DNA of 64,000 bases. It comes from Mobula hypostoma. Lineage: Eukaryota. Under the pieces are notes generated by a model. That model made no database searches and was not told where the DNA came from. It was given only the letters and a program-made list of their open reading frames with translations. Below are positions 18,341 to 48,221 of the stretch, one piece after another. The stretch is taken from assembly GCF_963921235.1 (NCBI RefSeq), contig NC_086097.1:51524001-51588000 (forward strand), given 5' to 3'. The translations under genes and the position numbers were made by a program. Within the stretch, counting starts at the first letter, position 1. Each line of letters opens with the position of its first letter.

Positions 18341-19792
18341 TTTATGAAGAGATTAAAGGCATCACATGAGTGATTACTGCACCACACAATGTGCCTCACA
18401 GTCAATTATAATTTACTATTTTCAGTTCCCAAAGTCCATCTGCACTACCAGTAGGGACTTCAACTGGCCTTTCTCAGTCTCACATGTATTTATAAACTGT
18501 AAACACATAGTTATACTAAAGATAATAAATGAACATAGCATAGGAAAAACTAAAAATTTACCATGGCAAATGAACCAGTTTATTAGATTTTTTCATGATG
18601 TTCCAAATCAGATGAATAGGAGAAAGTTACTGGATATTAGCTGCCTGTGTACGAAAAAGCATTTAATACTATCTACATAATAGACTAATTTATAACGTGT
18701 GCACCCTCAGGATAAATGGCAAACCGAGACTGAATGGTGGCTGGAATGCTTCTACACCCCAAACTTTTAAATTGCTTCATCATTAGTGGTCATGTGTCGT
18801 GTCTAAACTATAAACTACAGTTTCCTTTAGACCTTTGAATTCTTATTCTTCCTCACTATTCCTCTTCATTTATAACTCAATTTAAAATTAGCCTCCTTAG
18901 ACTATGATCTTTTCCCAATACTTAATTTGGTTTTGAAAAACATTATTTGGTATTGTTCTTGAAATTTATTATATGTAATTAGTAAACATATGCTATTGTG
19001 TACACTTAAATTGGAACTGATAGCTGGTATTGAATCCCATTGGATATTGATAATGGTATTCCTGTGGTTTAATTCTAATGACAAGAACATAAATAATGTA
19101 GATTTTGACCAAAAGTTATCTAAAATAAAACTGAATAGTTTTAATTATTAGATTATATTATTTGACAGAGGTAAGCCATAAAAAAAATATAGTAACATAT
19201 TTAAAGTAACATCATTGAATGGGGTGTTCAAAGTGATATTATTAAAGCAACCAATTTAAATGTTTTCAGATAGATAACAATAAAATAATGGGTAATAATA
19301 GATTTGTTGCCCTGAGGATATTAATAGTCAATCATTGTGTGGACCACAGTGTGGATAGATCAGGGCTGACAGATTTCCTTCCTCGAAGATAAACACACGG
19401 GCTTATAGTTAGGGCTTGACCTCCAATGAATACACCAAATTTTTGAATTCAGTTTAAAATCTTGTTGTGGTTGGATCTGAAGTCTCTGCTCTATTCTTTG
19501 GTGTTTTTGTTTTAAAAAACAGTTTGAGGGAATATTCTCCCCTTGTTCATTGTTAGACCTTCCTTCAGATGTTACTTGCTGTATAGCTGAGCTATGATAG
19601 TCTTGCTTACTATGGGTACTAACAGTTAAAAAATCGTATGTTCTTGCACTGGAATAACTTCACACTGGTAAAATAAAGACAGATATTAGATTACCAAAAG
19701 GAAGATTGATTTTTGATTAACTTTCTTATATCTTATCTTGACAGTACAGAAAGTTTGACTGAATCACCATAGGCAGTGTTAATGTAAACCAA

Positions 19793-20063
19793 AGACGAGG
19801 AAATCTGCAGATGCTGGAATTTCAAGCAACGCATAAAAGTTGCTGGTGAACACAGCAGGCCAGGCAGCATCTCTAGGAAGAGGTGGAGTCAACGTTTCGG
19901 GCCGAGGCCCTTCGTCAGGACTAATTGAAAGAATAGCCATCTCTTACTAGCTCTTCTTTCAGTTAGTCCTGACGAAGGGTCTCAACCTGAAACATCGACT
20001 CTACCTCTTTCTAGAGATGCTGCCTGGCCTGCTGCGTTCACCAGCAACTTTTATGTGTGTTGC
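19793..20063. mobile_element. Miniature fold-back Penelope-like insertion (inverted ~110 bp arms, 14-bp TSD)
   Basis: Arms 19826-19933 and 19954-20063; ttaatgtaaaccaa duplicated at 19779-19792 and 20064-20077. Confidence 0.88.
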
Positions 20064-20489
20064 TTAATGTAAACCAAGTTACTTCTGTAGGGAAAGTGCT
20101 GAAGCAAAAATAAATCATATAATACATTGACATTTCCCTAGTCAGAATGCTGACATAAAAAAGCAACATTGTAAAAGCCATTGAAATCCTCCACATTTCA
20201 ATAAACTTGAAATGCTTATAGCAATGAGGTTGCCTTCACTTACAGAATGAACTTTCTTTTTTTCCTGAAGGAGTGCCCTGTCTAGTTTTTAATTATTTAT
20301 TAATACCACCATCTATTCAGTGAGAACATGCAGTACTGGACATAATTAATACAATGGTGGAAATATTGGTTTAGTATTCTTCTGCTAACCCTCTTGAAAT
20401 AAAACTAGTTAACACAATTGTTTTCTTTGAGGCTGTTGAATTATTTGATTGAATATGATTCAAATGTGTCATAACAAGTCAACAAGGTG

Positions 20490-21695
20490 ATGCATTTCAT
20501 TGGCTCCACTCAGCTCTGGAACAGCTGGACAATGAAGATACATACATCAGGATGCTCTTTGTTCGTCATTCAACAATATCACCCCTTCAGAAGTTCCAAG
20601 AACTGGGCCTCTGTACTCCTTGTGCAACTGGATCCTTGATTTCCTCACTGGCAGATGCCAGTTAGTACAGATTGCAAATAACATAATTGCACGAGAGCTC
20701 CACTTTCACGATCAGCACAGGCGCACCACAGGGCTGTGTGCATAAAGACCCCTGCTTTACTCACTTTATACAAATGGTTGTGTGGCTAAGTACAGCTTTA
20801 ATGCCATATTTACATTTGCTAATGACACCACTGCTGTTGGCCGAATCAAAGGTGATGGGAAAATCAGCATATAGGAGGGAGATTGAAAATCTGGCTGAGT
20901 GGTGTCACAACATCAGCAAAACCAAAGAGTTGATTGCCGACTACAGGAAGAAGCAGCTGGGGGACAATGAGCCGGTCTTCATTAGGGGAATAGAGGTGGA
21001 GAGAGTCAGTAGCTTTAAATCCTTTGGCAGCAACATATCAGAGGATCTATCCGAGAACCAAGACATAGGTGTCATCACAAAGATACTGCCTCTACCTTCT
21101 GAGAAGGTTGCATGGATTTGGCATTTTACCATAAACTTTGGTTGACACACTTGAAAAGATGCACGGTGGAGAGTATCCTAACTGATTGCATCACTGCCTG
21201 GTATGGAAAGCCCAATGCACAGGGATGTAAAAGGCTACAGAAAGTGGTGAATGCAGCCCAGTCAGTCACAGGCAAAGCTCTCCTCACCATTGTGTACGTT
21301 TACATGGAGCTCTACCACAAGAAAGCAGCATTTATTATCAGAGACCTCCACCAGCTGGGCCATGCGCTTTTTTTGCTACTATCATTGGGTAGTAGCTCCC
21401 ATGCCACTAAGTTCAGGAACAGTTATTGGCCTACAATCATCAGGCTCCTGAACCAGTGTAGATTACTTCGTACATCACTCTGAACTGATTCAATGACCTA
21501 CAGACTCATTTTCAAGGACTATTTACAATTAATGTTCTCACAATTATTTTTTTGTATAACATGGCTTCTTTTGTGCATTAGTTGATTATCTACAGTTTTT
21601 CATAAATACTATTGTATTTATTTTTCTGTAAATGCCTGTAAAAGCTAGTGTATGGCAACATACATATACTTTGCTAATAAATTTACTTTGAACTT
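20490..21695 (+). mobile_element. Degenerate Rex1/Babar-like LINE
   Basis: ISTGAPQGCV, SAYRREIENLAEWC, RCTVESILTDCITAWYG, FRNSYWPTIIRLLN; tail aataaatttactttgaacttt. Confidence 0.85.
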
Positions 21696-21929
21696 TATTG
21701 TCTTTACCTACATTATGTAAATTGTGGTTTTGGTACCATAACCAGATCATTAGTTTGATCTAATTTTTCCACCATGGTTGATGAGAACCCAACTTAACCA
21801 ACATATTTAATTCATGCTGTAATTTTGTGGTTTTATCTTTATTTTAAAATTTCATTAAAATGTTAACACATGTAAAACTATGAGCTAAGCAGGGATTGTG
21901 GTATTCATATTAGTTGTTTATTGTCACAG

Positions 21930-22310
21930 CTCAGAAAGTACAACATTTTCCTGCACAGATGAACTGAACTTTCTATGCAACATCTACTCTTTCCCACAAT
22001 CTACCAGAGGATCCAAATGAAGGAGCGATTCGCTTGCCCTTTATCCACTACGGCACTGCATCCAGTACTCATGACGTGGTCTCCTCTACATGAAAGAAAT
22101 CACATACAAGTAGGTGGCTGCACTGAGCTTCCAGTTGTGTGTCATTTTAATTCCTCTTCCCACTTCCACTATGACCTATCTGGCTGTGGCCTCTAGTACT
22201 CTTCCAACAAGGCCCAATATAAGCTTGAGTGACACCAGCTCATCTTCCATTTGAGCACATTGTAGACCTTGGGTCTGAAGATCAAATTTAATAGTTTCAG
22301 GTAACTTACT
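21930..22310 (+). mobile_element. Old Penelope-like GIY-YIG remnant
   Basis: ELPVVCHFNSSSHFHYDLSGCGL resembles DLPVATHFNSTSHSHSDMSIHGL of the 31572..32315 ORF. Confidence 0.65.
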
Positions 22311-25300
22311 TTTTCTTCCTGTATTAGAATGGATTAGTTTTGCTGGATAGTCCCACAGTTAACTCAGCTTTTCTCTCTTCACAGACAGAGTCTGATGTTT
22401 TGGTTTATCTACTATTCTCCTTTTAGTTTCAAGTTCAACAGGAGCTCTGACCTGCATTTCGAAACTTTACACGTTCCTTTGTTTTCTTTCATCCTAACTG
22501 TCCAGATGAGAGATTTTGCTCTCTGCATTAATCATTCAGCAGCCAGGAGATCATTCTTTGTGGTGGTCTTCTGTGCACTGATTAACTTGGCGACAACCAA
22601 GTTTAGCCATCGTCCTCTGAGATGGAGCAAGGGAAGAATCAGAGATTAAGAAAGCACCATTATTGGGGTGAAGATCATGGAGACTGAAGGAAAGGTAAAG
22701 GAGAAGGTAATAGCCTGAGTAATAGGATGTCCACCTCAAGCCAGAATACAGTTCTGGATGTGAAGTGACATTTGATCCTGGGAAGATTTTCATCCAATGA
22801 CACTTATCAAGAAATAATCTTCAATCAGTGATACAATCAATCATTACCATTTTGAAACTGCTGATGATTTTAAGGTGGTAGATGTTCCCACCAAAAGACC
22901 ATACTGAAGCTTCTATTTTTCTCTTCCATCTCACTAAAACATTGCAACAACTACTTACTTAGAACAAAGGAATTGTTAATAAATCAAGCCTGGCATCATG
23001 AAGTCTCGAACAAATATACATATTACTCCAAATCATCCACACATAACCTTCACCGTTCATGCTTATGCTTCTTGAATTAATCTCATCATGATAGGAAGCT
23101 ACTCCTAATGAAAATTCTTTCATGAGTCCTTTAAATAGCCCACTGAAGAATAGCTGAGGTCAAATTCATTAATGGATATCTATGATCAGAACGATAGGAG
23201 AAGCAGAGTTATTCAATAAGATTAGAAAAAACGATTCATTGCTTAGGTAGCAGCTGAATCTATTCATCATTTTATTTGTCAAGGAGCATACTTGCATGTC
23301 CCCTTGGTTTCATGCAATATTCGAGACAAATCTCTCACACTGCGCCCATTTGGCATAAGTACGAAAAGAACTAAGATCATATTTTAGCAACCACACTCAG
23401 AACATGAGTATTTGAAAATACTTGACATGGGGTCTGTGGCAACATGTGCTTTGGGCAGACTTACTCAAACAGCAAGGAATTAGGGAAGGCCTGTCCTTCT
23501 AATGTTTAGCATCTTGTAGCATCATCTTAAATCTTAATCGTTCCTATGTTTCAAAAGGCATTACAACTTATTGTACATTAGTTTGCCTCTGGGACAGGGT
23601 TCTTAGGGATGTCATTCGGAGCTATTATTGGATTTTTGAGAAAACCTTATTCTATATTAAGCTTTTATGTTAAGGTTTTGAACCAGCTGTATTTGTTAAA
23701 ATCATTCTATAGTAAGGAAATAAGACAATTTGAGGTTGTCTCTGAGACATTAATTTATCTCTGATGTCAGCCTTCCCAGCAAAGCTTGGGTAGCTGCTTT
23801 TGACAAGACTTAGTTCCTCAAACTGCACTATTAAACCATGGTCAGTTACATTAAATGAGCATGAACTACACAAATGGGATAAAAACAATTCTAACAGAAA
23901 TAAATAGCTGGATAAGAAAACCAAGTAGATTTTGCTTCATTGTTTTAGTCATCATGTGTCCTGCTTCCCCTATGACAGTGTTTCCCCACCTTTTCTATGC
24001 CATGGACCCCTACCATTGCCCAAGAGGTGGGGAACTCCTGCCCTATGGTTACAACTGTGCTAAGCCTCAAAAACCTTGCCATGGCTAGTAAATTGACTTT
24101 GGATACTCTCTATGCTTCCAGATTATTGTACCAATACCTTATACTTTGCTGTGCTTGGAAACCAGACAATTTTTGGTTCAGGCTTAGCAGAGGTCTGGAG
24201 AATTTGAGGTTGTTTTTAAGAGTTTTAACCAATTTTAGAGGCAAAATACTGCTCTCTCTCTCTGTTACCATTTTCCCTTGACAATGACACTGTCTGGCAC
24301 AACAGCTGGACATTACTCCAAGCACTTTATAGTGTTTCCCTTGGAGAACAATGTTCTTATAAGGCGGCTCAAACAATCCCTCTAAGTCAGCACTATCAAC
24401 TTCCATGGAGCTGAGCCAGTAGCTCTCCTCCAGTCTGACCACAGCCTGTTTGTGCCAGGTACAATCAAATACCCTTCTACTCTAATCTCTTCCATTACAG
24501 AGCCGGTATTGCAGCAATGATCTGCAAGAATCAGCATCCTTGTGTAGTCTCCTCTGCAGCACTCAATGTATGCAACCCTTCTTGCCCTCCAGAGGCTTTT
24601 GCAGGCCCTCTGAGGTTGCAGGCTGAGCTTAGACTCACTCCCTTCCCTCCAGGCAAATTCTCAAAATGAAAGGAATACATGATAGATGGCTCTGCAGCAA
24701 TGATCACTACCAAATATTAAAATCTCAGAATTATGCTTACTTCACAATGTCAATAAAAAGGTTTGCATTGAACTGCAGCTAGAATTTCTCAGCAATTAAT
24801 GCCTTTTAGACATCCTTTAGATAAACAACATGCTAAAGTTAATGGGATAATGAACCAGGAGTGGCTGCTACTATTGACTACACCTACAAGAGATTGGAGC
24901 TTACACTGAAGGCTGAAATCCATTATAACTGTCCAAGATTTTGAGTTTGTGCTTCACTACAAGCTTTGAATAGGTGATAAAGTTGCAGCCATTTTAAGAT
25001 TAATGTTCCATTGGTGCTTCGTGGTACATTAGAGACATCCTTAGCTATTGCTCCCTTAAATTTGTATGGAAAATATATCTGCATACATGTGCATTGGAAG
25101 TGCCTGACTTAAACATATTTATATTGAAATGTATGGGTGTTATAGTTTGTTAGTGCACATCACAGGAATATGTTTCTTTCACCTTAATACATTGTGCAGA
25201 ATTGTGAAGGAGGTACAGATGTGGAATGTAGTATGAATGATATAAATGCTTTGGGCTGCCTTATCCATAGACATTGTACACCTAGTCAACATCCAGATAT

Positions 25301-26559
25301 AATTTATTACTGATGCCCGAAGGCTTTGCTCATTGCCAGAGTTTGAAAATAACATGTTGTGTATGGGTGCACTTCTTACAAGTTAGCAATTTTGGTACTA
25401 ATGAGCAAGTATTTACCCAGATGCAATAGGTCACAGACACTCTCAGCACCTGGTGCCTTGGGCTTGCCAATCCCAACAGTAATAAGGTGCCATACCCTTC
25501 GCTTCAGAGATGTGAACCCATTCTCATGAGCTGGGCCACCAATGATTTACTATGCCAAATGCCTGCTCTTGGCCACAGATTACGAGATCATTGAGCTAAC
25601 CTAATGGGCCTTCTTGGATAATTCTATTAACTCATCATGAAGCAAAAGAAAATGAATAATGGAATGATGTACAATGTCTATTGTTTCATGAATTGGCCAG
25701 TGTGTGTTTAGTGCGGTGACTATTAAAGATCAATATGCATTGCGTTTGCGTCAGAGAATGAGCAGAATAATAATATTTGGAGAGAGTTTGCAGTGAACGC
25801 GAGACAGAAACAGAGCAAGAATGCCAGTGTTAGACAGAGAGACAGTTAATCTGGTAATTATTGAAAGGAGCTATACACTGTATTAAGTTGCTATGCAATT
25901 GTGAATGCCAAAACGGTAGTCTTTTAATTACATAGGTTGTTTATTTTCTATACCACCAAAAATGACAAGATTAACAATATTACCATTTCCTTTTGATATT
26001 TCAATACTGCAAATTTTACAAGTAGATAGCAGACAAACAAGTAAGCAAGCAGTGACCAGGCCACTGAAAGCAAGACAGTCATAATAGTAACTAACTTACA
26101 CTGATTGTATGGACAGCTGATATCTGTAAAATACAACAGGGATTTCTTTAGAAAAAAAGCGTTCCGGTGCTTGGCAAAATACACCATAACACTTTATTTA
26201 GTTTCACAGATTCTTTAAAAACAACGTTGCAGTGTTAAATGTCAATGGCACAAATACAATTATTGTACAAAAATGTTTGCCACATGGTTTAGTTTTAATT
26301 TTTTAAACATTTGCATATATATTCTCAACAAAAGCTTTTTATAAATGACTAAAAGGCTAAGCTGTTTTAAGACTATGACATTAGCTTCTATAGATTACAA
26401 TCCATGAATGTGGCATTTCAAATATGACACCGCATCACAACCCTTTGCACAAGTTTACCATTTATTGTATTGCCTTAATATGTGACTTTTTCAAAAAGAG
26501 CTTTCTACTTATCTTTATGCATATAAATCCCATAAATGTGTAATGTTTAATGTATTTTA

Positions 26560-26721
<162 letters not shown>

Positions 26722-29874: not shown

Positions 29875-30132
29875 TCTATTCCAGCTGCTACCATATGGGA
29901 AATGGTACCGCAGCATAAAAGCCAGGACCAACAGGCTCCAGGACAGCTTCTTCCACCAGGCCATCAGACTGATTAACTCAAGTTAATTTGAGTGTATTTC
30001 TATGTTACATTGACTGTTCTATTTATTATAAATCACTATGATAGCACATTGTACATTTAGATGGAGACGTAATGTAAAAATTTTTACTCCTCATGTATGT
30101 GAAGGATGTAAGAAATAAAGTCAATTCAATTC
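29875..30132 (+). mobile_element. Rex1/Babar-like LINE 3' fragment
   Basis: LLPYGKWYRSIKARTNRLQDSFFHQAIRLIN; AATAAA plus (caatt)n tail. Confidence 0.75.
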
Positions 30133-30278
30133 AAAGAACTTCAGTTTTATGAAGCAGTAAATAACAATGAGTTTAGAGAGCAAACAACAGGAATTCTGCA
30201 GATGCTGGAAATTCAAGCAACACACATCAAAGTTGCTGGTGAACGCAGCAGGCCAGGCAGCATCTATAGGAAGAGGCG

Positions 30279-30316
30279 CAGTCGACGTTTCAGGCCGAGA
30301 CCCTTCGTCAGGACTA
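30279..30316 (-). ncRNA. Minimal hammerhead ribozyme motif, mirror copy (sense to TRIM9 transcription)
   Basis: Reverse complement of 32608-32645. Confidence 0.7.
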
Positions 30317-32607
30317 ACTGAAGGAAGAGTGAGTAAGGGATTTGAAAGCTGGAGGGGGAGGGGGAGATCCAAAATGATAGGAGAAGACAGGAGGGGGAGG
30401 GATAGAGCCGAGAGCTGGACAGGTGATAGGCAGAAGGGGATACGAGAGGATCATGGGACAGGAGGTCCGGGAAGAAAGACGGGGGGGGGGTGACCCAGAG
30501 GATGGGCAAGAGGTATATTCAGAGGGACAGAGGGAGAAAAAGGAGAGTGAGAGAAAGAATGTGTGCATAAAAAAGAGTAACAGATGGGGTACGAGGGGGA
30601 GGTGGGGCCTAGCGGAAGTTAGAGAAGTCAATGTTCATGCCATCAGGTTGGAGGCTACCCATACGGAATATAAGGTGTTGTTCCTCCAACCTGAGTGTGG
30701 CTTCATCTTTACAGTAGAGGAGGCCGTGAATAGACATGTCAGAATGGGAATGGGATGTGGAATTAAAATGTGTGGCCTCTGGGAGATCCTGCTTTCTCTG
30801 GCGGACAGAGCGTAGATGTTCAGCGAAGCGGTCTCCCAGTCTGCGTCGGGTCTCACCAATATATAAAAGGCCAGATCGGGAGCACCGGACGCAGTATATC
30901 ACCCCAGTCGACTCACAGGTGAAGTGATGCCTCACCTGGAAGGACTGTTTGGGGCCCTGAATGGTGGTAAGGGAGGAAGTGTAAGGGCATGTGTAGCACT
31001 TGTTCCGCTTACACGGATAAGTACCAGGAGGGAGATCAGTGGGGAGGGATGGGGGGGACGAATGGACAAGGGAGTTGTGTAGGGAGCGATCCCTGCGGAA
31101 TGCAGAGAGAGGGGGGGGAGGGAAAGATATGCTTAGTGGTGGGATCCCGTTGGAGGTGGCGGAAGTTACGGAGAATAATATGTTGGACCCGGAGGCTGGT
31201 GGGGTGGTAGGTGAGGACCAGGGGAACCCTATTCCTAGTGGGGTGGTGGGAGGATGGAGTGAGAGCAGATGTACGTGAAATGGGGGAGATGCGTTTAAGA
31301 GCAGAGTTGATAGTGGAGGAAGGGAAGTCCCTTTCTTTAAAAAATGAAGACATCTCCCTCGTCCTAGAATGAAAAGCCTCATCCTGAGAGCAGATGCGGC
31401 GGAGACGGAGGAATTGCGAGAAGGGGATGGCGTTTTTGCAAGAGACAGGGTGAGAAGAGGAATTCCTCTTCTCACCCTGTCTCTTGCAAAAACGCCATCC
31501 CCTTCTCGCAATTCCTCCGTCTCCGCCGCATCTGCTCTCAGGATGAGGCTTTTCATTCTAGGACGAGGGAGATGTCTTCATTTTTTAAAGAAAGGGGCTT
31601 CCCTTCCTCCACTATCAACTCTGCTCTTAAACGCATCTCCCCCATTTCACGTACATCTGCTCTCACTCCATCCTCCCACCACCCCACTAGGAATAGGGTT
31701 CCCCTGGTCCTCACCTACCACCCCACCAGCCTCCGGGTCCAACATATTATTCTCCGTAACTTCCGCCACCTCCAACGGGATCCCACCACTAAGCATATCT
31801 TTCCCTCCCCCCCTCTCTCTGCATTCCGCAGGGATCGCTCCCTACACAACTCCCTTGTCCATTCGTCCCCCCCATCCCTCCCCACTGATCTCCCTCCTGG
31901 TACTTATCCGTGTAAGCGGAACAAGTGCTACACATGCCCTTACACTTCCTCCCTTACCACCATTCAGGGCCCCAAACAGTCCTTCCAGGTGAGGCATCAC
32001 TTCACCTGTGAGTCGACTGGGGTGATATACTGCGTCCGGTGCTCCCGATGTGGCCTTTTATATATTGGTGAGACCCGACGCAGACTGGGAGACCGCTTCG
32101 CTGAACATCTACGCTCTGTCCGCCAGAGAAAGCAGGATCTCCCAGTGGCCACACATTTTAATTCCACATCCCATTCCCATTCTGACATGTCTATCCACGG
32201 CCTCCTCTACTGTAAAGATGAAGCCACACTCAGGTTGGAGGAACAACACCTTATATTCTGTATGGGTAGCCTCCAACCTGATGGCATGAACATTGACTTC
32301 TCTAACTTCCGCTAGGCCCTACCTCCCCCTCGTACCCCATCTGTTACTCTTTTTTATGCACACATTCTTTCTCTCACTCTCCTTTTTCTCCCTCTGTCCC
32401 TCTGAATATACCTCTTGCCCATCCTCTGGGTCACCCCCCCCCCGTCTTTCTTCCCGGACCTCCTGTCCCATGATCCTCTCGTATCCCCTTCTGCCTATCA
32501 CCTGTCCAGCTCTCGGCTCCATCCCTCCCCCTCCTGTCTTCTCCTATCATTTTGCATCTCCCCCTCCCCCTCCAGCTTTCAAATCCCTTACTCACTCTTC
32601 CTTCAGT

Positions 32608-32645
32608 TAGTCCTGACGAAGGGTCTCGGCCTGAAACGTCGACTG
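32608..32645 (+). ncRNA. Minimal hammerhead ribozyme motif (Penelope-associated)
   Basis: agtc-CTGACGA-agg(gtctcgg)cct-GAAA-c-GTC-gact: stem I agtc/gact, core boxes intact, stem III reduced to the ACGT palindrome. Confidence 0.7.
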
Positions 32646-35099
32646 CGCCTCTTCCTACAGATGCTGCCTGGCCTGCTGCGTTCACCAGCAACTTTGATGT
32701 GTGTTGCATGAGTTTAGAGAGTTTAGGAGTGATTGAAAAAAAGTAAAAAGGTCTATTATACTAGAAAAGATGTCTTCTTTGGTGGGGAAAATTAGCAAAA
32801 AAATGTATTTGTTAAATTAGACCCATTCCTTTTAATAGAGAAATCATGAAGCATCTTTTCACATTAATGGTAATCATTTTTGGGAATCTGGATCAAACAT
32901 TCCCAATGAAAGCAGAAGATCCATCTTTTAGTTTTAAATTCCATAACAAGATTCAAAATCCAGGATAAAGTCACTAAAATAATTATCAGCAAAACATGCA
33001 TTGATTATCAATAGTCCCTGAACTATTTGAACCAATAAACCAACATTATTTCAATACTAGTGAAACATAGCACAAACTTATTCTTCATATCTTAATTTAA
33101 AAGTATACTATATACTCATACTATCTTCTAATCAGGCATGCAAAAACTATACACCTAAATGGAATTGTCCAGTTCACATCTATACATGCTCAACTCCTAC
33201 TGTAGACCAGGCAACTGGAATCTTCATGATTATTGAAATTGTTGCTCTGCAGAAGATGGATAATCACAACCTTCTCTCTTCTTTTCCCCCCTAACCACAG
33301 CTCGGTATCAAGGCTTAAATCGTGCAAGCCAAAGTTCTCCATCCATGACCAATGCTGCTTTATGAGGATCCAAGAAAGGTGTGTTGTTCTATTGTTCCCT
33401 GAATGTTCATCTCATGCACCTGATGGCAGCTCCAGTGTAAATTTTCAGTAGTTGCTGCAATGACCAGGAAGAATCAGAAAAAAAAAATGGTGGTCTTGGT
33501 GACTGGTTTTAATAACTCTACCAAATTTACACTGGGGTTGCTGCAGATGCACAATACGGAGAACTCAACTTCCAACAACAGAAGATTCTACTCATATTAC
33601 CATGCTAATTCAGAGAAGATTCATATTAAGTGGTCACTTCACTACAAGTACACTCTTTGGCCATCTTTAATTGAAAGAACAAAAATCAGCTTCTGCATCA
33701 ATTTTTGCCAGTGCATACCTATGATTTAACAGACTAATACTTTTTCATTGCTGCCAAAAAATGAAGCTTTAAGGTAATATTTTAACCCCCATTGCCAAAG
33801 CTGATTTCAAAGACTGTTGGAAATGTCTTCCTCCATTGATCAGGGTCTACCATGGATGCTATATCCTAGCTGTCCATGCAAATCAGAGCAGAATGATGTG
33901 AAGAGTAAGCTGTTGCCTCTACATCTAGCTGATGAATCCAAGGGAATGGCAGAGGCCGATACAGTTCGGCACCAGTGGCAGCTGCCTAAAGCAACTCTTT
34001 TTTTAAAAAAAAGTCATCAGTAACCTGCCTTTGCCCCATCTCCTGTCAATAGAAACAGTTCCACCAGGCTTAGTAGCAAGCCACATGTGAAGGCCATGAG
34101 CTGGACTTGGTTGTCAGGGGCTATTTGAGACACATGCCATTGGGAGTATTTACTAGGTAGTGGGAGCTTATCCCCACTTCTCCCCCTGCCCTCCCAGCTA
34201 TGACAATCTTAAGAAACTATGGCAACCTTAAGTCTCCCCTTAAGCCTCTGTAATAATGTATACATTTCTAAAATTGATGGCTGGAATTTTCAAAATGTTT
34301 TTGTTACTGCAAAAAAGGACTAATTTGCAGAAGTTATCAAAAATAAATTTGTTAACTGTTATTGACTTGATTATATAATAATATGTAAAACTGTTCTTCC
34401 GGTCTACTTTAGTATCCATTAACAGGATTGCATCAAAAAAAACTACCAAAAGGGTATGCAATGGGCATTTTAAAATGTTAATTAGCGTGCCAAGTTTTTT
34501 CAGAATTTTTAAGAGTGCCTATAATTAACAGTAACACTATGGCACAGTATTATTTATTGTTACACATTTGATTTTATTAACATATCAGATCCAATAATAA
34601 GTGTATTTTTGGATAGAAAAGGCCACTTCCAGTTGAATTCACTGTATTAGAATCAGATCAAAACCTCCATCATGAAACATTATCACATTGTGAAAATATG
34701 TATAATCAAATTCCATAGAGAAAAATGTCCTTTAAAAAATAAAATCAATTGGATGACCAAGGATTTATGTTAGAGTTAATCATTTAATTTTATGATAATT
34801 TTTGCTTTTACCAAATGGCAGTCTTCCTGTTCATGTAAAAATGTTGCCCTGTCTCCTTCATCAAGAAATTTCAAGTATAGGTAATTGTTTTGTTAATGTC
34901 AAAATGATATACAGATTGTCATTTTGGTACTTTAAAGGTTATTACTGAAAACAAATTTGAATATAATTTACAATCTTAAGATGGGAGAAGGCATCCTTTT
35001 CTGAAGTATAGGAATGCAGAGAGGAACACATGAAATGACCAACAGCCAATGAATATATTTATGAATAATCTTTTTAAAGAACATTTAAAAAAATATTCA

Positions 35100-35300
<201 letters not shown>

Positions 35301-35548: not shown

Positions 35549-35686
<138 letters not shown>

Positions 35687-38195: not shown

Positions 38196-38465
38196 GGTAG
38201 AAGTTTTGTTAGCAAACCACAACACATCACATAGTTCACAGGCACTATTTTGTAACATTATTGTACGATCGTTATCTTACTTAAGCCTATATACAGCAGC
38301 AGAATAAAGTAAAGGAATTCACATGTCTGTTGACAATAGTAATGAAGGTATCAAGATCACAAATTAAAGCAACATTTAAAGTACATTGATGTAATATAAT
38401 ATTCACATTGACAGAACATATACCTTTTTGAAAATTGTAGCAACGTTATCGTGACAATAATACTA

Positions 38466-38648
<183 letters not shown>

Positions 38649-38730
38649 TCAAATAATCAGCTAAAGTCAAATACAAAATAAAACATCCAACAATGGATTG
38701 TTATAATATATTTCAGAAATACAAGAAATC

Positions 38731-39985
38731 TGTTTCCCATTTTTGCTTTGACTTATGGGTTCCTTGTTTAATTGTCTGTTCTTGAATCAAATTATACATA
38801 CAAGAAATAAATTTTTTAATTTTCCCTTTTTGAATTAAAATTTCAATTTCATTAGGTTTTGGCATAAACATTGTTTGACCCAGCTTACCTTTTAAGTAAG
38901 CCCTTAATTGAAAATAACAAAAGAAAGTATTATTAGATATTTTATATTTATCCTTTAATTGTTCAAATGACATCAATATACCTCGTTCAAAACAATCTCC
39001 TATAAATTTAATCCCTTTTTGGTACCAATTATATAAAAGTTGATTGTCCATTGTAAAAGGAATAAGTCTGTTTTGAAACAAAGATCTCCTTGCTAATAGA
39101 GATTTCTGTGTTTCATTATCAACATTTATCTTATTCCATAAATCAATCAAATGTGTTAATATAGGAGATTCTTTCTTATAAAACAGATTTGAATATTAAT
39201 ATTGATGAAACAAATTGGTCAAGACTCTGTCTTGACAGTATGACAAATACAATAAATGTTCGACTTAGATTAGTACAATATAATTTTTTACACCAATTAT
39301 ATATTACACCACAAAAAATAAATAGATTAAATTCAAATCTATCCGATAAATGCTTTCGGTGTAATCAAGAAATTGGTACTTTTTTTACATTCTACTTGGT
39401 CTTGTTTTAAAATTCAACCCTTTTGGATAAATTTAAGAGTCTTATTGGAACAAATTACTGGAACTCAACTTCCACATAACCCTGTATTATTTCTATTAGG
39501 TGATATTGAAGGGATAAAACCGAAACTTAAATTGAATAAATATCAGAAAGAATTTATAAAAATTGCATTGGCAGTAGCTAAGACGACAATAGCAGTTACT
39601 TGGAAATCTGATTCATATTTAAGTATGGATCGTTGGAATAATGAAATGGCTAGTTCTATTCCACTCGAAAAAATTACTTATAATTTAAGAGATAAATATG
39701 TAACATTTTTGAATATTTGGCGCCCTTATTTACAAAAGATAGGATGGCATATTTAAGTGCTCCGATAAAGACCTTGGTCCCTTGGGGAAAGTAACGAATA
39801 ATTATACCAAATTTATTTTGAATCCCATGGAGCATGTGGAAACCTTCCAATACCCAGGCGGTTCTTTTCTTTTTTCTCTCTTTCTTTCTTTTTAGGTAGG
39901 ACTATATATATGGGGGGGGGAAGGGTAGATTTTATCTTTTCATGTATTCTTTTTGAAAACTCAATAAAAATTATATTACAAAAAA
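38731..39985 (+). mobile_element. L1-clade LINE 3' portion with 5' inversion (twin priming)
   Basis: ORF 38713..39150(-) continues into ORFs 39189..39410 and 39373..39756(+) with CFRC..H..WSC zinc knuckle; AATAAA 39963, short polyA; TSD agaaatacaagaaatc at 38715-38730 and 39986-40001. Confidence 0.9.
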
Positions 39986-40836
39986 AGAAATACAAGAAAT
40001 CACATATTCAGACTATCATTCTTTGAGAAACATTAATTTTGTATTCTACTTCTCTGCTTTCAATCTTACTAATACTAAGAGAACAATCAGCCATAAGCAA
40101 AGTGCAAAATCAGGAGAGCAGCAAAATCAATTATGTAAAAAAAGGTAAGAGATGATGGCGTGGCAGGGGGGCCAAGCAATCAAAGAGTCAATAAAGCAGT
40201 AATATTTAACATTCCAAAACAATACTTAGAAATACAGAGAAGGAAACAGGGAAAGAAAGAATTAAATTAAAGGGAGATGCAAGAGCTTGCAAAGGACAGA
40301 AATGGGAACATAGGCGGTAAGGATTGAGGCTGGAGGGTGACAAATGGGGACAGAGAAGCTACAAGTGTTGGAGTAACAAGCTGTGGGAGAGACTTAGCAG
40401 GTTGAGCTTCTGATGGAAGAATAATTGATATTCAGTCAAAACCCTACAATGGGAGTGAGAGTGGAGAGGGGAGATGGCTATTAGTGTTGAAACTACGAGT
40501 TTCCTAAAACTGCGTAGACTATTGTACTGCAAAGCTAGGGAACAGAGGAATCTATAATATTTTGGCTGAAATCAGTGAGTTCCCGTGCATCTCATTCTGT
40601 TTATCAACTAAATTTAACTTCCAGTCCATAGTTAACTTACCAAAAAAGGGACAGCCTTGACCAAATGCAATCAAAGCTACACCAAAACATTTACTTCCAA
40701 GTGCACTTTATATCTGGTAAAATATTAACATATTAATCAAAATTCCAAGCAAACATAAACTGAATAAAGACATGATCCACTTTAAACAGTGAAGTTAAAT
40801 ATAATAAATAAAGTTTCACTTCAGTTGTTAAATTCA

Positions 40837-40935
<99 letters not shown>

Positions 40936-41245
40936 CTAAAAACAAATGTACATGTGAGATCAGGCAAATCATTTGAAAACCTTAACTTTCTCCAGGGTTG
41001 ATGGATTCCTGAAACATATCTTGGACATAATTGCTTAAAAGTAACTGCAGATGAATCTTAAGCAAATGATTAGAAATGCAAATTTTCATGGTCATATTAT
41101 TGTTCAGTTCGCGTATCACATTTTTCTTCTCAAGCCCTTGTTCTTTCCCATCTACCTTGCTTCACCTATAAACTTCCAGCTAGTCTCTTTCCTCTCTCCT
41201 GCCTCCCTTTTTTAAAAATTCTGGCATCTTTCTCCTTCCTTCTCA

Positions 41246-42148
41246 GGCTACGTCCACACTACGCCAGATAATTTTGAAAACGAAGCATTTTCTCTTCGTT
41301 TTGACCCTCCATCCACACTGAAACGACATTTTCATCCCCCGAAAACGGAGATTTTCGAAAATGCTCTCCAAAGTGTGTAAACTTGAAAACGATTGTTTTG
41401 TGTTGTAGTGTAGATGGGGTAAACAGAGATTTAAAAATGTTGTCATGACAACACCACAACAACAATGCTTTTTCTGCTTCTGCTTGGTACTGTGCAAGCA
41501 CTGCCAGACGGCTGTTATAATGCGCAGTCGGTGTGAACGGAGTGAGAGTTAAATTGTAAAGTGAGCTTTTTTGACTAGATCCCCTAAATTGATTTGATTG
41601 AGTCTATCTTTAAAAATATTAATGTCAGAAATACTGCATAGTTCTGGCTGCAGAAGATTCCACTCTCTTGTTGATCTTGTGTGGAGGACTGCTACATGCG
41701 TGTGTTGTTTACTTTATTGTCTACGTTAATGGTTTGTTTGGAATTAAACATCTCTACTGCTTTACTGACTTTGTAGTCATTTGTAACTCGCAGAAACAGC
41801 TCGACTTCATTGTCTGTCTAAACAAGGAAGTCCGGTCTGAGTTTTCCAGCGGACGTTTTCTTTGTATTCCTCGAAGACATTGTTGAAAACTTTCTTTCGC
41901 TGTTGTTGGTACTCTAATTTTATTGTATAGAAATAGCACAACGCCGTCGCGGAAATGTAAATATTATACCATTTCCTCTTCGTTTGTTTTCTGTAGATGT
42001 GTCTGCGCATGCCCAGTAGGAGTAGGTTCGCCCAAATATCCATTTTGGTGTGGACAGGGATATTTTGAAAAACGCGTAGTGTGGACGCCTGTCATTTTTA
42101 CTTGAAACCGGCATTTTCAAACTTATCCAGTCTAGTGTGGATGGAGCT
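41246..42148. mobile_element. Non-autonomous PIF/Harbinger-like DNA transposon
   Basis: Imperfect ~33-bp TIRs (ggctacgtccacacta... / ...tagtgtggatggagct), TCA TSD at 41243-41245 and 42149-42151, internal Myb/SANT-like remnant. Confidence 0.8.
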
Positions 42149-42439
42149 TCAGTCCTGAAGAGGGTCTTGGCCTAAAATGTCAACTGTTTATTCATTTTCC
42201 ATTGAGGGTGCCTGACCTGCTGAGTTCCTTCAGTATTTTGCATGTGTTGCTTTAGATTTCCAACATCTACAGACTTTCTCATGTTTAGGATAAATCAAGC
42301 GATTTGCTCTCTGCTGAGGGCTAGATCAAAATCATTTAGAACTGGTGATCCAGGAAAGTAGAAGAGGACCAGTTATGATCTCCAGAATGCCATCTCGCAT
42401 GCAAAGTGTGAATTCTAAACTAAATTTGAATCAGTGACA

Positions 42440-44556
42440 GGGCTTAAATGTCATCACTTCTACAAAGAAAAACCAAGCAACATAAATGGCAATGAGGATT
42501 CACTCCCAGATGAGCTCAATGCCTTTTATGCTCACTTTGGCCGACAGAACATGGAGGCTCCTTCATGAACTCCCACAGCCTCTGAAGACCCTCTGAGGCC
42601 GAAGTGGAAGCATCATCATTAAACTCCAAAATCTGAGCCTTGGCATCTCCCTGTGGAAATGGATTCTCAATTTCCTCACGAGCAAACTCCAGTTAGGATG
42701 GATTGGCAATACCATCTCCTCTGCACTCATGTGCAAATGCACAGGGGAATTTGTGCTTAACCTCCTACTCTACTCACTTTATACTTATGTGTGCCTAAGT
42801 ACAGCTCCAATCCCATAGTTAAGTTGGAAGGGAGATTGAAAATCTACTTGAGTGGTACCACAACAAAATCCTCTAATTTAGCATTGGAAATACCAAAGGA
42901 AGACACCAGAGGTCCACGAGAGTCTTCCTTAGGGGAATGGACACGGAGAATTTCAGTAGCTTTAAATTCCTTGGTGTTGTCAGATCAGAAGATCTGTCCT
43001 GGAATCAGCATGCAAGTGCCATCACTAAGAGGGCACAACGGCGCCTCCACTTTCTTAGAAGTTTGTGTACTTCCGGCATATCACCAAAACTTTAACAAAC
43101 CTCTACAGATTCATAGCAGAGTGTATTCTAAACACAAGAGATTCTGCAGATGCTGGATGCTGGAAGCCTGATGAAGGAATTAGGTCCAAAACATTATTTC
43201 CTTATTCCCCTCCATATATGTTGTGTGCCTAGCAGAGTTCCTCCAGCATTTTGTGTGTATGGTGGAGAGTATCCTAACTGGTTGCAACATGGACTGGTAT
43301 GGAAGCACCAACACCCACGAATGGAAAAAGCTGCAGAAAGTGGTGGATAGAGCTCAGTCTATCACAGGCAAACCCTTCCCAATACGAAGTACATTTACAA
43401 GGAGAGCTGCCACAGGAAAGCAGGATGCATCACCCAACAGCCCCACAATCAGGTCATATCCTCTTCTTGCAACTACCATCAGGCCAGAGCTAGGGAAGCC
43501 TCAAATTCCACACAATAGGCTCAGGAACAGTTACTAACCTACAACTATCAGGTTCCTGAACCAGCGAGGATAACTTCATTCAGCACTACTAAGAACTGAG
43601 GCACAGACTCACTTTCAAGGACTCTTTACAACTCATGTTCACAGTATTATTTTCATTTGTAGTTTCTCTTCTTTTTGTGCATTGCTTTTTTGTCAATCTT
43701 TGCATATTTTTAGATAAAATTCCATTATATTTCCTTTTCCCCGTAAATGCCCGCAAGAAAATGAATCTAAAGGTAGTTGTGATAGAGAGCACTGAGTAAA
43801 TGCGCTCCCTACACACACACACACACACAGCCTTGTCATTCTGCTGTCATTGCAGTGAGCGTACGCACTTCAGTGTCTTCCCCGTATATCCTCATAGTTG
43901 ACCCACTGCTTTCCCTCCGGATTGGTGCATGCGGTCAGAGTCAAACACTAAGGTGTGATTTGATTTTGTACTTGACTGCAAGTGTGCGATTGTGTTGAGC
44001 GTTCTGCTGCAGCTTCCTGGCAGTCATGTGGCCTCCACTGGATCCGAACCGGAGCTGCAGGGTTGGCTTTATGGTGCCCTTCCCCACCATACACGATGGA
44101 ATATTCCATTACTTTAGTAATGGGGATGTGTAGATGTTGTTTGTATACTGTATAAGGTAGATACTTCAGTTTATTTTGTAATATGGTTGTAACTACATAT
44201 GACGCACCCCACACTGTAGTCTTAAGTTAACTTTATTGGTAATTAAAAATGGTATGCGCCAGTGTCCAACGAAAAGGAGCTCTTATGCCTCAGTATGAGA
44301 GAGAAAGGTAGGGACTGTCAAGAGTTCACACTGGACAAAAAAACTCCAGAGCTATTAGTGTTTTCTTGTAGATATCATTTTGGAAATATTGGCATTTTGC
44401 TTTTCACTAATTTTTATGCACCTAATAAACACCCTTGCACTAAAGTGCAAAGTGTCTTCAGCCATTTTTTCTTTGGTCATAATCCATGTATCTAACAGTA
44501 GTATATAGTAACTATACACACTTTGATAATAAATTTACTTTGAATTTGAACTTGAA
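42440..44556 (+). mobile_element. Degenerate Rex1/Babar-like LINE with nested insertions
   Basis: SLPDELNAFYAHF, VESILTGCNMDWYGS, KKLQKVVDRAQSITG, RLRNSY; 3' UTR split by an LTR. Confidence 0.8.
43778..44497 (+). mobile_element. Solo LTR, 720 bp
   Basis: TGT...ACA termini, 5-bp TSD gtagt at 43773-43777 and 44498-44502, AATAAA at 44424; removing it restores the host LINE 3' UTR. Confidence 0.8.
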
Positions 44557-46756
44557 AGTAGATAGATAACCATGTTGTTTTTCACTTATTATTGCACTAA
44601 CACCAGCACTGCAATTTGACCTTTACAATCCAGCTAATGCGACACACTACAACTACCTCACCAACCTAAACTACTTAACAAAAATTACTTGGGAATTTAT
44701 CATGCTGATAACTTCAATCCTAATGACTAAATTGTGATTGTACCTTTTCTTTTCACAATAAGATCAGCTCCCAGTCTTTCAAAGTGTTCAACGGCTCCTC
44801 TAGCGGCAACTAAGTCATTCTAGGATTCAGCGTCATTTCAATTTTTTTTCATATTGTCATGTTTTGTTACACCATTAAGTCCATGCTAACTCCGGGCATT
44901 TCTGCCCAAATCCACCTCCTGCCCCCCCCCCATTTCCCTGTGACCTATTCTATACTACATTTAAACAAAATCACCCCAATTACTCTACTGACTTCCTACA
45001 CTCTAATTCACAGAAGCCAATTAACTGACCGGCATTCCTTTATGTAGGAGAAAAATACAGCTCTGAGGGAAACTTGTACAGCTACAAGGAGAGTGTACAC
45101 ACTCCACACAGACAGAACAAGGTTACTCGAATACTGAAGCTGTGTGGCAGCGTTAATCGTTGCACCACAGAGCCTTCCCATATCAGAAATAAAACTAATA
45201 AACCTCTTCTGAGCTCTCAAATACATGTACATCCCTCCTTAAGTAAGCTTATCGAAAGTAAAGGCAATAGTTCAGGTGCAGTCTCAGCAATGCCTTGTGT
45301 TGCTGCAGTAAGACATCTTTATCTTTACATTTCATCTCCTTTGCAATAAAGTATAGTACTTATTGAATAAAAACAATACAAACAGATTTAAAAAAAGAGT
45401 GGTGGGTGCCTGGAATGTGCTGCCTGGGATGTTGGTAAAGGGAATTTTAAGAGACGTTTAGATAGGCACGTGAATGAGGGGAATGGAAGGATATGGACAT
45501 TGTGCAGGCCGAAGAGATTAGTTTAGTTGGCCATTTGGTTGCTAATTTAATTGGGTTGGCACCACACTATGGGCCAAATGGCCAGTTCCTGTGCTGTATT
45601 GATCTATATATGTTCTATGTTCTATTTAGTTTTACAACTAATTGAAATATACTGAAGAAACCCATTTAAAAATTACATACCATATCAAAAACCAATTATA
45701 TCAACTAAACCAACTATATGTAAAAAAGATTTATTCAACATCTAATTTTCATGAATGAGCCAAAACTCAACTTGACAACTGCTAGGACTTTATCCAGTTA
45801 CATTTCAAAAATCCAAGTATCTGACTTTTCATTATCTTTACAGAATATGATTATTTTCAAAAGTGGATTTAACTTAAAATCAGAGCTAGCTAAAATAGTA
45901 CTTGAGAAAATAGTTGTCAATGAGTCCTCTTGGAAATCTGGCCATTCCAACTTGTGAGAAGTAACAGAAAGTGTTAAACCTTTTATGTTTGTCTCCTTCC
46001 TTTAGGGGGCACTATTGTAACACTACTGTACATCATTCATTGACTGCAGGGGAGACCTTTACGCTTTGACACTAGCACTAGAGAATTGCATTCCCAACTC
46101 TTCTTTCACCAAAGATTGTAACATTAGAGTGGTACCAGGGAGAAGGAAAATTATTTCCTCTTATGTTTAATCACGTTAAGCAATAACTTGAACTGTAATT
46201 AATGTTACAATCCAACATGTGTTTCTACTATTACACTGGTTTTGTTCAAGGTGATACTTCCTATCTGGTAGACAAGTAACTCAGACCTTATCAAACAAAG
46301 CCGAGCAATTTGACATGTATTTTCTTCAGTTCTTGTTTTCTGATCCATAGATAGCTTGACATGTTTTATAAAACCATAGAATGCTTGTTTTACAGATTTT
46401 TTTCCTGGACAAATTTCCTGCAGGTAGAAATAGTAGTCAAGTAGACCACAGCAAAATGAAGCCATACATAAATAGTAAATCTTAAAATGCATCTTCAGTT
46501 TTTTTCCCACTATTATGACTTAAAAATGAAATTTAAATTGTCAAGTGACCATGCATTCTCTCAATTTTTGCAAGTTCATGTGATAACAATTTAGAAATTA
46601 GTTCTGAGATTCTACTGAAGTATCTCAAACAAAAAGAAAGGTGTCAATGAACTAGCAATAGGAGGGACATAAATTAATTAGCAAATTTAAAGTCATGAAA
46701 TTAATGGGAATCTGATTACAAGTCTAGAAAAGAGAGAAAAAGCTGAGTGGGGAGAG

Positions 46757-46886
46757 CATAAACACAGAAGATTCTGCGAGTAACACCTAAACAGTCCTGA
46801 TGAAGGGTCTTGGTCAAAACATCGACTGTTTACTCACTTCCACAGAGGCTGCTTGTCCTGCTGAGCTCCTCCTACGTTTTGTGTGT
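46757..46886. mobile_element. Miniature Penelope-like insertion with inverted tail and 15-bp TSD
   Basis: gctgagtKgggagag duplicated at 46742-46756 and 46887-46901; decayed hammerhead cagtcctgatgaagggtcttggtcaaaacatcgactg. Confidence 0.75.
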
Positions 46887-48221
46887 GCTGAGTTGGGAGA
46901 GGTCACTTTTCAGCCCAGAGAAGAGTTCACTGTGATGATCCCATGAGTTTTAATTTAAAAAACTGCTTTCATTGTTGTGCAATAATTACATTTACTTGGA
47001 TACTTGAACAGCTGTGACCTACTGGGCTGGAATCTAATGCTGGAAGGTCCTGGACTTGAAACGTTCACTTTCTCCACAGTGTCTCCAATATTTTCTACTT
47101 ATATTTCTGATTTACAACATCTGAAGACTTTAAGGTTTTTATATTTTTAGGATACAAATTTTGGGGAGTAGAAGGTAAGATCAGAGGGTGGAGAGTATAA
47201 TGCTCCTTTGTCAGTAGTATCAAATATCCAAGAGTTTTTATAAGAACTCGACTGAGCATGCACCTCAGTTTTCATTATAACAAAAGCTACCAAGTACAAT
47301 CAATATGATTTGGTGATGGGAACTGGTGAGTTTTAAGGAACTTAATACTGAACCACATACTTTAACAAACATCCTATAGCATCATTGTAGATGGTATTGT
47401 GTTCAAATAGACACCAAAATTATTACTGATATGAATTTCAATTTGGAAAGAGATTCACAATTAAATAAAAAAGCTATCTGCATCTTACATCTTCATTAAG
47501 GATGACCTCCCATCTCAATTCCAATTACTACAACACACTCCATTCAAGTCTCACTTCCATAGTAATTACTAACCATTTCAATTTTCTGCCTACCTTTCTA
47601 ATATCCAGCTACTTCATTATGTGAGTAAGTGTCTGAAGCCAGTTAATTATTTTTACAATTTTCTTCTCAGAAAGTTGTTCTCAAGTTGATGAGCATACAT
47701 TGAAAGATCAGTTGTGCGTACTGCATACAAACCATTTATAATGAGGAATTTGAACTGCTTAGATTAACATGACAAAATCCTCTGCAAATTGCTTTTATGG
47801 CTTTAATAGATTACCTAAAAATAAAATGATTCAATACACGATTTACCAATAATCAACTGTAACATCTTTCAATTCATGAAAAGCGAGTGGATCAGAATAC
47901 ACCAGGAAGAACAACCAAGATTCTTGCTATCTGCATGAATTAATTTTATAGCTTCCAACTGATCTGTGAAGCTACCTTCAACCCTGAAACTCCAAATACT
48001 GCTGAATGCCATCAAAATCTTTGGAATCTTAGCATAATCGAGTCACACACTTGCCTACTACACTAGTTAACAGTGTTCACACCTTAAATATTCACTATAA
48101 TAATGTCTGCAATTTAGATTTAAATAATGATAAAATATTGTTGACCTCAGAAAACATTTAAAGAGATATGAGGGGTACAACTACTGCTTTGCTAATAAAA
48201 ACAAAAGTTACTGTAAATATT

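Follow-up and report, generated by a model that had tools for sequence, protein, structure and literature searches.

Four insertions of a Penelope-like element (PLE) in the genome of Mobula hypostoma raise the question of how one element comes to lie in the DNA as two unequal, inverted arms, and whether this geometry is new. The window, the whole stretch of DNA that was analysed, is 64,000 nt long (NC_086097.1, 51,524,001-51,588,000, forward strand), and all coordinates refer to it. Element positions were counted backwards from the terminus of the left arm of insertion 2, and window position 30181 is -1. Re-examination showed that the four insertions picked out by the sequence-only reading are real: each is bounded by a TSD and consists of a tailed antisense arm and a sense arm that stops short of the terminus.

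Identity and abundance of the element

Judged by its sequence, the element belongs to the Neptune/Nematis type of PLE and carries a minimal hammerhead motif. The open ORF fragment in insertion 2 matches the Pfam GIY-YIG model just under the cut-off (E 1.5e-4, 22.4 bits; cut-off 22.6). It has 72 longer homologues, many with the RT domain PF00078; both RT and GIY-YIG are present in homologues, the top match is a shark protein (63%), and an older copy in the window can be aligned to RT-bearing homologues. GIY-YIG follows RT in one ORF, as in EN+ PLEs. The CCHH residues were also found, the two cysteines between GIY and YIG by translation and motif match and the later histidines by eye. A Zn-finger-like linker CX2-5CxxC lies between RT and EN (residues 150-158 of the fragment) and recurs in 48 of the 72 homologues. 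This linker defines Neptune/Nematis (PMC8557442). The Penelope/Poseidon clade was ruled out because the linker Zn-finger is absent there but present here. The predicted hammerhead, located by motif scan, has a 4-bp helix I, a core, a short helix II and a palindromic helix III, and helix I is complementary in both arms of insertions 1 and 2. Rfam at its gathering score gave no match in the 64 kb, hammerhead included.

Four public runs were aligned to 30130-31490: two raw-read runs, which gave 1 and 0 reads, and two Logan contig sets (X1 and X5), of which X1 may be the source sample. At a likeness of at least 82%, 318,470 contigs of one run matched this 1.36 kb. The four insertions are dead-on-arrival, 5'-truncated copies of a very abundant element. 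The depth over the tail was 0.52 (X1) and 0.56 (X5) of that in the next bin, as one tail per two arms would give; it was rejected as evidence because, with overlapping contigs, the final 30 bases of every repeat are covered less deeply. The loci that a pattern scan returned from other collections (1 viral, 0 genome, 17 metagenome) were put down to chance, as no alignment to the element at E<1e-3 was obtained for any of the 18.

Layout of the insertions

All four insertions share one layout (Table 1). Inside the TSDs, the antisense arm carries the element terminus and the sense arm ends 36-41 nt short of it, close to the 33-40 nt first given. The sense arms end at -37 in insertions 1 and 2 and at about -42 in insertions 3 and 4, with an uncertainty of +/-2 owing to a GT run and the overlap with the TSD. 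The 3' end points form two clusters, one at about -1 and one at -37 to -42.

Table 1. Features of the element family in the window; ins1 to ins4 are the four insertions.
Feature	Position	Strand	Remarks
Ins1 left TSD, 14 bp	19779..19792	+	exact match to 20064-20077
Ins1 tailed arm	19793..19937	-	element about -4 to -150; includes hammerhead motif
Ins1 hammerhead motif, antisense arm	19922-19887	-	motif scan
Ins1 tail-less arm	19939..20063	+	element -161 to -37; includes hammerhead motif
Ins1 hammerhead motif, sense arm	19965-20000	+	motif scan
Ins1 right TSD, 14 bp	20064..20077	+	first two T common to start of missing tail
Ins2 left TSD, 14 bp	30167..30180	+	TSD comparison
Ins2 tailed arm	30181..31463	-	-1 to about -1283; tail 30181-30216
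Ins2 hammerhead motif, antisense arm	30315-30280	-	mirrored; motif scan
Ins2 tail-less arm	31462..32707	+	about -1283 to -37; 2-nt overlap with left arm at centre
ORF fragment, C-terminal, open, 283 aa	31464..32315	+	RT thumb region, CX4CxxC linker, GIY-YIG endonuclease with two internal cysteines
Ins2 minimal hammerhead motif, sense arm	32609..32644	+	-135 to -100; motif scan, compared with PMC4209133
Ins2 right TSD, 14 bp	32708..32721	+	TSD comparison
Ins3 left TSD, about 19 bp, decayed	43113..43131	+	flank comparison and uninterrupted repeat relative
Ins3 tail-only arm, 26 nt	43132..43157	-	about -3 to -29
Ins3 7-nt tandem repeat of tail arm's last bases	43158-43164		adjoins tail-only arm
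Ins3 tail-less arm, older subfamily	43165..43258	+	about -135 to -42
Ins3 right TSD	43259..43277	+	14/19 identical to left
Ins4 left TSD, 15 bp	46742..46756	+	TSD comparison
Ins4 tail-only arm, 21 nt	46757..46777	-	about +2 to -19; by eye, weak profile match (E 5)
Ins4 unassigned bases, 14	46778-46791		between tail-only and tail-less arms
Ins4 tail-less arm	46792..46886	+	-136 to about -42
Ins4 right TSD	46887..46901	+	14/15 identical to left
Fifth inverted pair, older	58214..58372	.	antisense arm, tailed, reaches about -105; sense arm runs from -136 to near -80
Long older copy, tailed, without inverted arm	61250..63755	-	candidate 9-bp TSD 61241-61249 / 63756-63764

The TSD length first given, 14-17 bp, held for insertions 1, 2 and 4, where each score was equalled by 1 of 2,987 random flank pairs, but not for insertion 3. 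The 13-nt core of the decayed TSD there was equalled by 2.1% of null flank pairs. An uninterrupted relative of the host repeat (21034-21283) contains the TSD segment once, and insertion 3 is flanked by it on both sides. This indicates that the TSD is real and about 19 bp long. Fold-back architecture, which had been ascribed to all four insertions, is confined to insertions 1 and 2. The left arm of insertions 3 and 4 is only a tail piece and does not overlap the right arm, so these two, without complementary arms, are inversions and not fold-backs. The tail does lie on the left in four of four cases, but this is mere orientation, and a bias was rejected as chance (0.125).

The search of the window at E<0.001 gave ten family loci, five inverted pairs and five single tailed copies, and only four of the ten have the full layout. 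The idea of one shared layout is thus correct for the four named insertions, but not for the five loci that have no inverted partner, nor for the fifth pair, which the sequence-only reading had overlooked; it ends near -80 rather than -37 and counts against the explanation favoured below. No TSD was found for that pair, and the TSD search at single copies (3550, 42150, 47040, 49096 and 60713) returned nothing convincing. For the candidate TSD of the long older copy, a 9-mer match arose by chance in 88 of 20,000 random draws.

The head-to-head arms meet with an overlap of 0-2 nt or with filler. Among the joints listed, one inverted joint recurs in at least six contigs (summed depth 507 in X5), and several 5' ends cluster near -135, as they might if the short forms were a non-autonomous fold-back family that moves as a unit in the manner of a MITE or SINE. 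We consider such a family very improbable: the four central junctions all differ in place and filler, and the arms derive from at least three subfamilies. The recurrent joint, an opposite-strand one between -46 and -134, was present in at least two contigs of X1 and at least four of X5, and corresponds to the form of insertions 3 and 4 if read head to head. The layout is relevant mainly to repeat annotation, which should not class hairpins of this kind as MITEs or as new SINEs.

Perfect palindromes are a known class of artefact, and the centre of insertion 2 is spanned by none of the contigs listed. That its 1.25-kb palindrome, or the layout in general, was created by fold-back in assembly or reads is nevertheless scarcely credible. 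The TSD of this insertion is exact over 14 bp, and its arms differ at 10 of 1,246 aligned columns. Four of these differences (30729, 30778, 30874 and 31328) are letters private to the left arm, and there the letter of the right arm is held by 98-99% of the family depth in X1. The layout is also common to three smaller, diverged cases.

How the two arms could be formed

The formation of tandem and inverted PLE structures is still called undefined (PMC8557442). We believe, with a probability of roughly 0.6, that the insertions are best explained by two nicks, reverse transcription from two start sites and head-to-head joining, which yields the known form of an inverted copy plus a one-sided tail. 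First, the GIY-YIG endonuclease would nick both target strands 14-19 nt apart, the spacing observed in the TSDs. Nicking of both strands was demonstrated in vitro for PAc, the Poseidon element of the anole Anolis carolinensis (Frangieh et al. 2024, PMC11167929). Second, both 3'-OH ends would prime reverse transcription, one at a distal start at the end of the tail (about -1) and the other at a proximal site (-37 to -42) in a small stem-loop. These are the observed end points, and the priming is modelled on PAc. That protein cuts and extends the two strands and is a predicted dimer, and two RT start sites flank the tail (PMC11167929). Third, the two antisense cDNAs would be joined head to head at their truncated ends, at the junctions observed, with the gaps presumably filled by repair. 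A distal cDNA that stopped inside the tail would give a non-overlapping inversion (insertions 3 and 4), one that ran on would give a long palindrome (insertions 1 and 2), and priming at only one nick would give a plain tailed copy (61250-63755). Two-ended integration at defined points of the 3' end, as proposed in the sequence-only reading, fits this anatomy and the in vitro behaviour of PAc (PMC11167929), but its geometry is not new. The fixed geometry that had been offered as the novelty did not survive the comparison, as an offset of 30-40 nt is the known PLE 'tail', which inverted insertions often carry at one end only (PMC8557442, PMC3846280).

The spacing of the sites resembles that in PAc. 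The predicted ribozyme cut comes 25 nt after the A of the ANG triplet in the core, as against 26 bp after the start codon in PAc; the two end points lie at +92 and +128 from the same A, and the PAc start lies at +111-118. A small hairpin at the proximal end point was predicted in four of five folded copies, which is only suggestive. The last 150 nt folded no better than shuffles (z = -0.94).

The tail could instead be made at resolution, with the endonuclease cutting a more symmetrical intermediate at a constant distance of about 36-41 nt from one end. Craig et al. hold EN-mediated resolution to be the most likely source of the tail (PMC8557442), and the D. virilis EN is cited as having needed the tail for recognition (PMC11167929). 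However, RT start sites were later mapped exactly on the tail borders (PMC11167929), and the tail-only arms of insertions 3 and 4 are hard to obtain from a symmetric hairpin. We therefore rate this route as quite improbable.

The upstream reach of the arms also bears on the mechanism. In all four insertions, the tail-less arm reached at least as far upstream as the tailed arm (values entered by hand), going further by about 11 nt in insertion 1 and by more than 100 nt in insertions 3 and 4. With n=4 this is weak (chance about 0.06-0.12), and it hints at twin priming on one RNA. In self-priming by snap-back, a single cDNA would bend back on itself at a short palindrome and serve as its own template, after which the second target end would be joined to the hairpin. 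Arkhipova et al. proposed self-priming, with an antisense template, and remarked on palindromes at inverted junctions (PMC3846280). At insertion 2, a 3-bp stem closing a 4-nt loop could be built from the end of the left arm and the letters that come next upstream in the family (loose-end consensus at 31463); the observed centre would then require a loss of 2 nt. A tail-primed cDNA that snaps back cannot outreach its own template, yet the tail-less arms of insertions 1, 3 and 4 do so, which excludes simple snap-back for these three; a cDNA primed at -37, on the other hand, has no tail. Overall, self-priming is improbable, if a little less so than a tail made at resolution.

Priming at two start sites, the reading we prefer, leaves a choice of template. 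The two primers may act on one RNA, where the leading cDNA would be displaced by the RT that follows it, and we favour this form. Alternatively, the same nicks and start sites would serve two protomers of a dimer, each copying its own RNA, and the cDNAs would be joined at short inverted matches. PAc is predicted to be dimeric (PMC11167929), the overlapping arms of insertions 1 and 2 would then need no strand displacement, and the concept has been put forward for L1, where it could not be distinguished from twin priming (PMC2837659). But independent RNAs should give independent 5' ends, and the tail-less arm is never the shorter one upstream (4/4). The arms of insertion 2 begin at one base near -1283 (centre 31462/31463), the tailed arm of two insertions does not extend beyond the tail, and the confinement of the tail to one arm is left unexplained. 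This dual priming is unlikely in our view, though the strongest of the alternatives; from sequence, the one-RNA and two-RNA routes cannot be told apart.

The PAc start site showed no difference between strands (PMC11167929), so tail/tail and no-tail/no-tail pairs are also predicted. Neither was seen among the five inverted loci of the window, and the best explanation therefore needs an added, postulated exclusion rule. We tentatively propose obligate twin priming on a single RNA, a possibility to which we give somewhat less than even odds: each target strand would use one start site, the same site would never be used twice, and the trailing RT may displace the leading cDNA. If true, every unit would have exactly one tail, its tail-less arm would never fall short of the tailed arm upstream, palindromes would end at a single base, and one rule would cover both the tail and the inverted repeat of PLEs. 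This link is unstated in the literature found (a search that covered non-subscription papers) and in the main text of PMC11167929; the genomic ends mapped in supplementary Fig S2 of that paper may be relevant to how new the pairing rule is. The huge family offers test material, as a tally of where the arms end could distinguish between twin priming on one RNA, priming on two RNAs and self-priming, with no bench work needed.

Comparison with known systems

A literature search found no paper on PLE TSDs in sharks, and the accessible part of a 2026 retrozyme preprint added nothing on insertion geometry. The predicted motif resembles the minimal type-I hammerheads that Cervera and De la Pena (2014, PMC4209133) described in metazoan PLEs in its short helix I, conserved core, palindromic helix III and location in the terminal repeat; helix II is 3-4 bp long here and 7-8 bp in the schistosome examples. 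In PAc, two internal RT start sites likewise bracket the tail, a hammerhead lies similarly far upstream and the start falls in a stem-loop (PMC11167929). PAc, however, belongs to Penelope/Poseidon, without the linker Zn-finger, so the start sites were mapped outside the clade of the present element. The predicted stem-loop that holds the proximal site here, on the sense strand, is G/U-rich, whereas that of PAc is AC-rich. TSDs and inverted insertions are not mentioned in the main text of that paper.

L1 twin or dual priming (Meyer et al. 2010, PMC2837659) gives the same TSD-bounded inversion by two priming events, one per target strand. Insertions 3 and 4 look like such a twin-primed inversion, in which non-overlapping inverted parts of a single RNA share a TSD, with the terminal part very short; insertions 1 and 2 do not, as their arms overlap, nor is the element a LINE. 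For L1, annealing determines a second site that varies from case to case, the arms are free of overlap and a poly(A) tail is present, whereas here the site is fixed and the arms can overlap over as much as 1.25 kb.

The closest likeness is to the inverted insertions of EN+ PLEs (Craig et al. 2021, PMC8557442; Arkhipova et al. 2013, PMC3846280). The same features are found in both: a head-to-head inverted, 5'-truncated copy, a 30-40 bp tail at one end, one TSD around the unit, and a palindrome or short overlap at the junction. The TSDs are 14-19 bp long here and 8-10 bp in the rotifer cases, and, unlike the insertions described in those papers, the present units have no full ORF-pLTR tandem and two of them have non-overlapping arms; the window contains no full copy of the element. 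Overall, the architecture is already known for PLEs and ordinary for the class.

Layout of the insertions and related loci in the window

Four Penelope-type insertions (ins1–ins4) carry an antisense, tailed arm on the left and a sense, tail-less arm on the right, and inspection of the window confirmed the places that the sequence-only reading had given them. Element positions were counted backward from the point where the left arm of ins2 terminates (window 30181 = -1); some limits of arms and target-site duplications (TSDs) are uncertain by 1–3 nt because letters are common to target and element. The tailed arms end between about +2 and -4, and the sense arms at -37 (ins1, ins2) or about -42 (ins3, ins4). 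The TSDs of ins1 and ins2 are 14 bp each and exact, and that of ins4 is 15 bp with one mismatch; each score was equalled by 1 of 2,987 random flank pairs. The TSD of ins3 is decayed. Because the same host segment is single in an uninterrupted relative (21034–21283) and flanks ins3 on both sides, this duplication is a genuine TSD of ~19 bp. The length of 14–17 bp proposed earlier thus holds for three insertions and is too short for ins3. A fold-back architecture had also been proposed for all four. It applies to ins1 and ins2, whose arms overlap; the antisense arms of ins3 and ins4 are tail only (26 and 21 nt), and their sense arms span about -135 to -42 without overlap.

Ten family loci were counted by profile search of the window (E<0.001, weaker matches left out), five being inverted pairs and five single tailed copies. 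The full layout is present in 4 of the 10. No TSD was found around the fifth pair (58214–58372). At its junction, a short word is common to both strands of hammerhead helix I, and the pair may have formed through microhomology near the ribozyme cut site. A 9-bp match like the candidate TSD of the longest single copy arose by chance in 88 of 20,000 random draws, and no inverted arm was found at that locus.

Penelope-like (PLE) family loci and other repeats in the window
Feature	Position	Strand	Remarks
ins1	19793–20063		junction: one unassigned base
ins2	30181–32707		junction: 2-nt overlap, upstream family continuation taken from loose ends at 31463 in public contigs
ins3	43130–43258		junction: 7-nt slippage repeat
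ins4	46757–46886		junction: 14 unassigned bases
Fifth inverted pair, older	58214–58372		sense arm ends near -80
Single tailed copies	3550, 42150, 49069–49169, 60713, 61254		profile search
Longest single copy, older PLE	61250–63755	minus	tail, candidate 9-bp TSD; ~1 kb of other sequence interrupts it between 61862 and 62890
Tailed copies from related subfamilies	47020–47145, 49069–49200		heavily decayed, internally deleted
Old PLE endonuclease-region fragment	22125–22301	plus	tblastn E 4e-10
Host of ins3, older interspersed repeat	42960–43380		relatives at 21034–21283 and 52482–52750
1.7-kb repeat, presumably LINE 3' ends	3908–5619, 13177–14895		two copies ~90% alike, 9.27 kb apart; third piece near 56016–56357

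Four of 24 listed public runs were compared with the element; the two raw-read runs among them yielded 1 and 0 reads. The family is very large, matching 318,470 and 283,632 contigs in the two public contig sets, one of which (X1) may be the source sample. A joint of opposite strands between -46 and -134 recurs in at least two and at least four contigs of the respective sets and is consistent with the ins3/ins4 form if read head to head. The tail-to-body depth ratio of ~0.5 in these sets was set aside as confounded by edge effects. Pattern scans of three other sequence collections gave chance matches only. An artefactual origin is improbable for the 1.25-kb palindrome of ins2: its arms differ at 10 of 1,246 columns, and at four of these the right arm shares the usual letter of the family in public contigs, where the left-arm letter hardly occurs.

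Element identity and the hammerhead region

The sense arm of ins2 holds an open C-terminal ORF fragment of 283 aa that combines a CX4CxxC linker with a GIY-YIG domain containing two internal cysteines. Its 72 longer homologues are mostly reverse transcriptase (RT)-bearing, the best being a shark protein (63% identity), an indication that the host is a cartilaginous fish. By the linker and Zn-finger definitions in PMC8557442, this predicted protein assigns the element to the Neptune or Nematis type rather than to Penelope/Poseidon. A scan of ins1 and ins2 placed a minimal hammerhead motif at -135 to -100 in each of their arms, resembling the minimal hammerheads described in PMC4209133; an Rfam search of the window gave no hits.

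Five short arms or copies (3550, 42148–42151, 43165, 46792, 58314) have 5' ends at about -128 to -139, at the start of helix I and directly behind a pyrimidine tract ending AG, which resembles a 3' splice site. According to PMC4209133, the 5' end of helix I is where the D. virilis intron ends. The cluster could reflect splicing, an RNA start or a point at which the RT stops, and may partly be due to subfamily divergence upstream of -135, of which loose ends at 30315 in public contigs are a possible trace.

Proposed priming events and comparison with known elements

Each target 3'-OH adjoins antisense element sequence, which begins at the tail end on one side and at the proximal site (about -37 to -42) on the other. 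In chemical terms, the anatomy is that of two priming events with cDNAs joined head to head; the nicking, priming and joining steps are what we infer from it. The two-ended integration at defined 3' positions proposed earlier fits the two start points in ins1–ins4; the fifth pair ends off the proximal site.

In all four insertions (limits read off alignments by hand), the tail-less arm reaches at least as far upstream as the tailed arm. Snap-back of tail-primed cDNA cannot give a tail-less arm extending further upstream, as in ins1, ins3 and ins4. This reach is accounted for by twin priming on one RNA, described for L1 (PMC2837659), in which the proximal primer would lead; the distal primer would halt inside the tail to give ins3 and ins4, or trail by displacement to give ins1 and ins2, extending no further than the same RNA end, as in ins2. 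It is also possible that two RNAs on a dimer were used, the number of RNAs per insertion being deduced rather than read from the anatomy. One-RNA twin priming rests on four cases, which are few, and both the fifth pair and the absence of a strand preference of the start site in PAc (Poseidon of Anolis carolinensis; PMC11167929) count against it. A tentative lead is that every unit bears a single tail and that its tail-less arm leads; we give this pairing rule a probability of 0.35.

In PMC8557442, the PLE tail of 30–40 nt is said to occur often on just one end of inverted insertions. Inverted pLTRs with 8–10 bp TSDs, an optional 31-bp tail and palindromes at the junction are described in PMC3846280. 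According to PMC11167929, the anole PAc protein cuts and extends both target strands, and the tail is the stretch between two RT start sites, where genomic ends fall; neither TSDs nor inverted insertions are mentioned in the main text of that paper. Because the tail had already been mapped between these start sites, the fixed geometry, earlier considered a possible novelty, is not new and corresponds to the known PLE tail. The inverted one-tailed insertions are real, and they are ordinary for Penelope-like elements.
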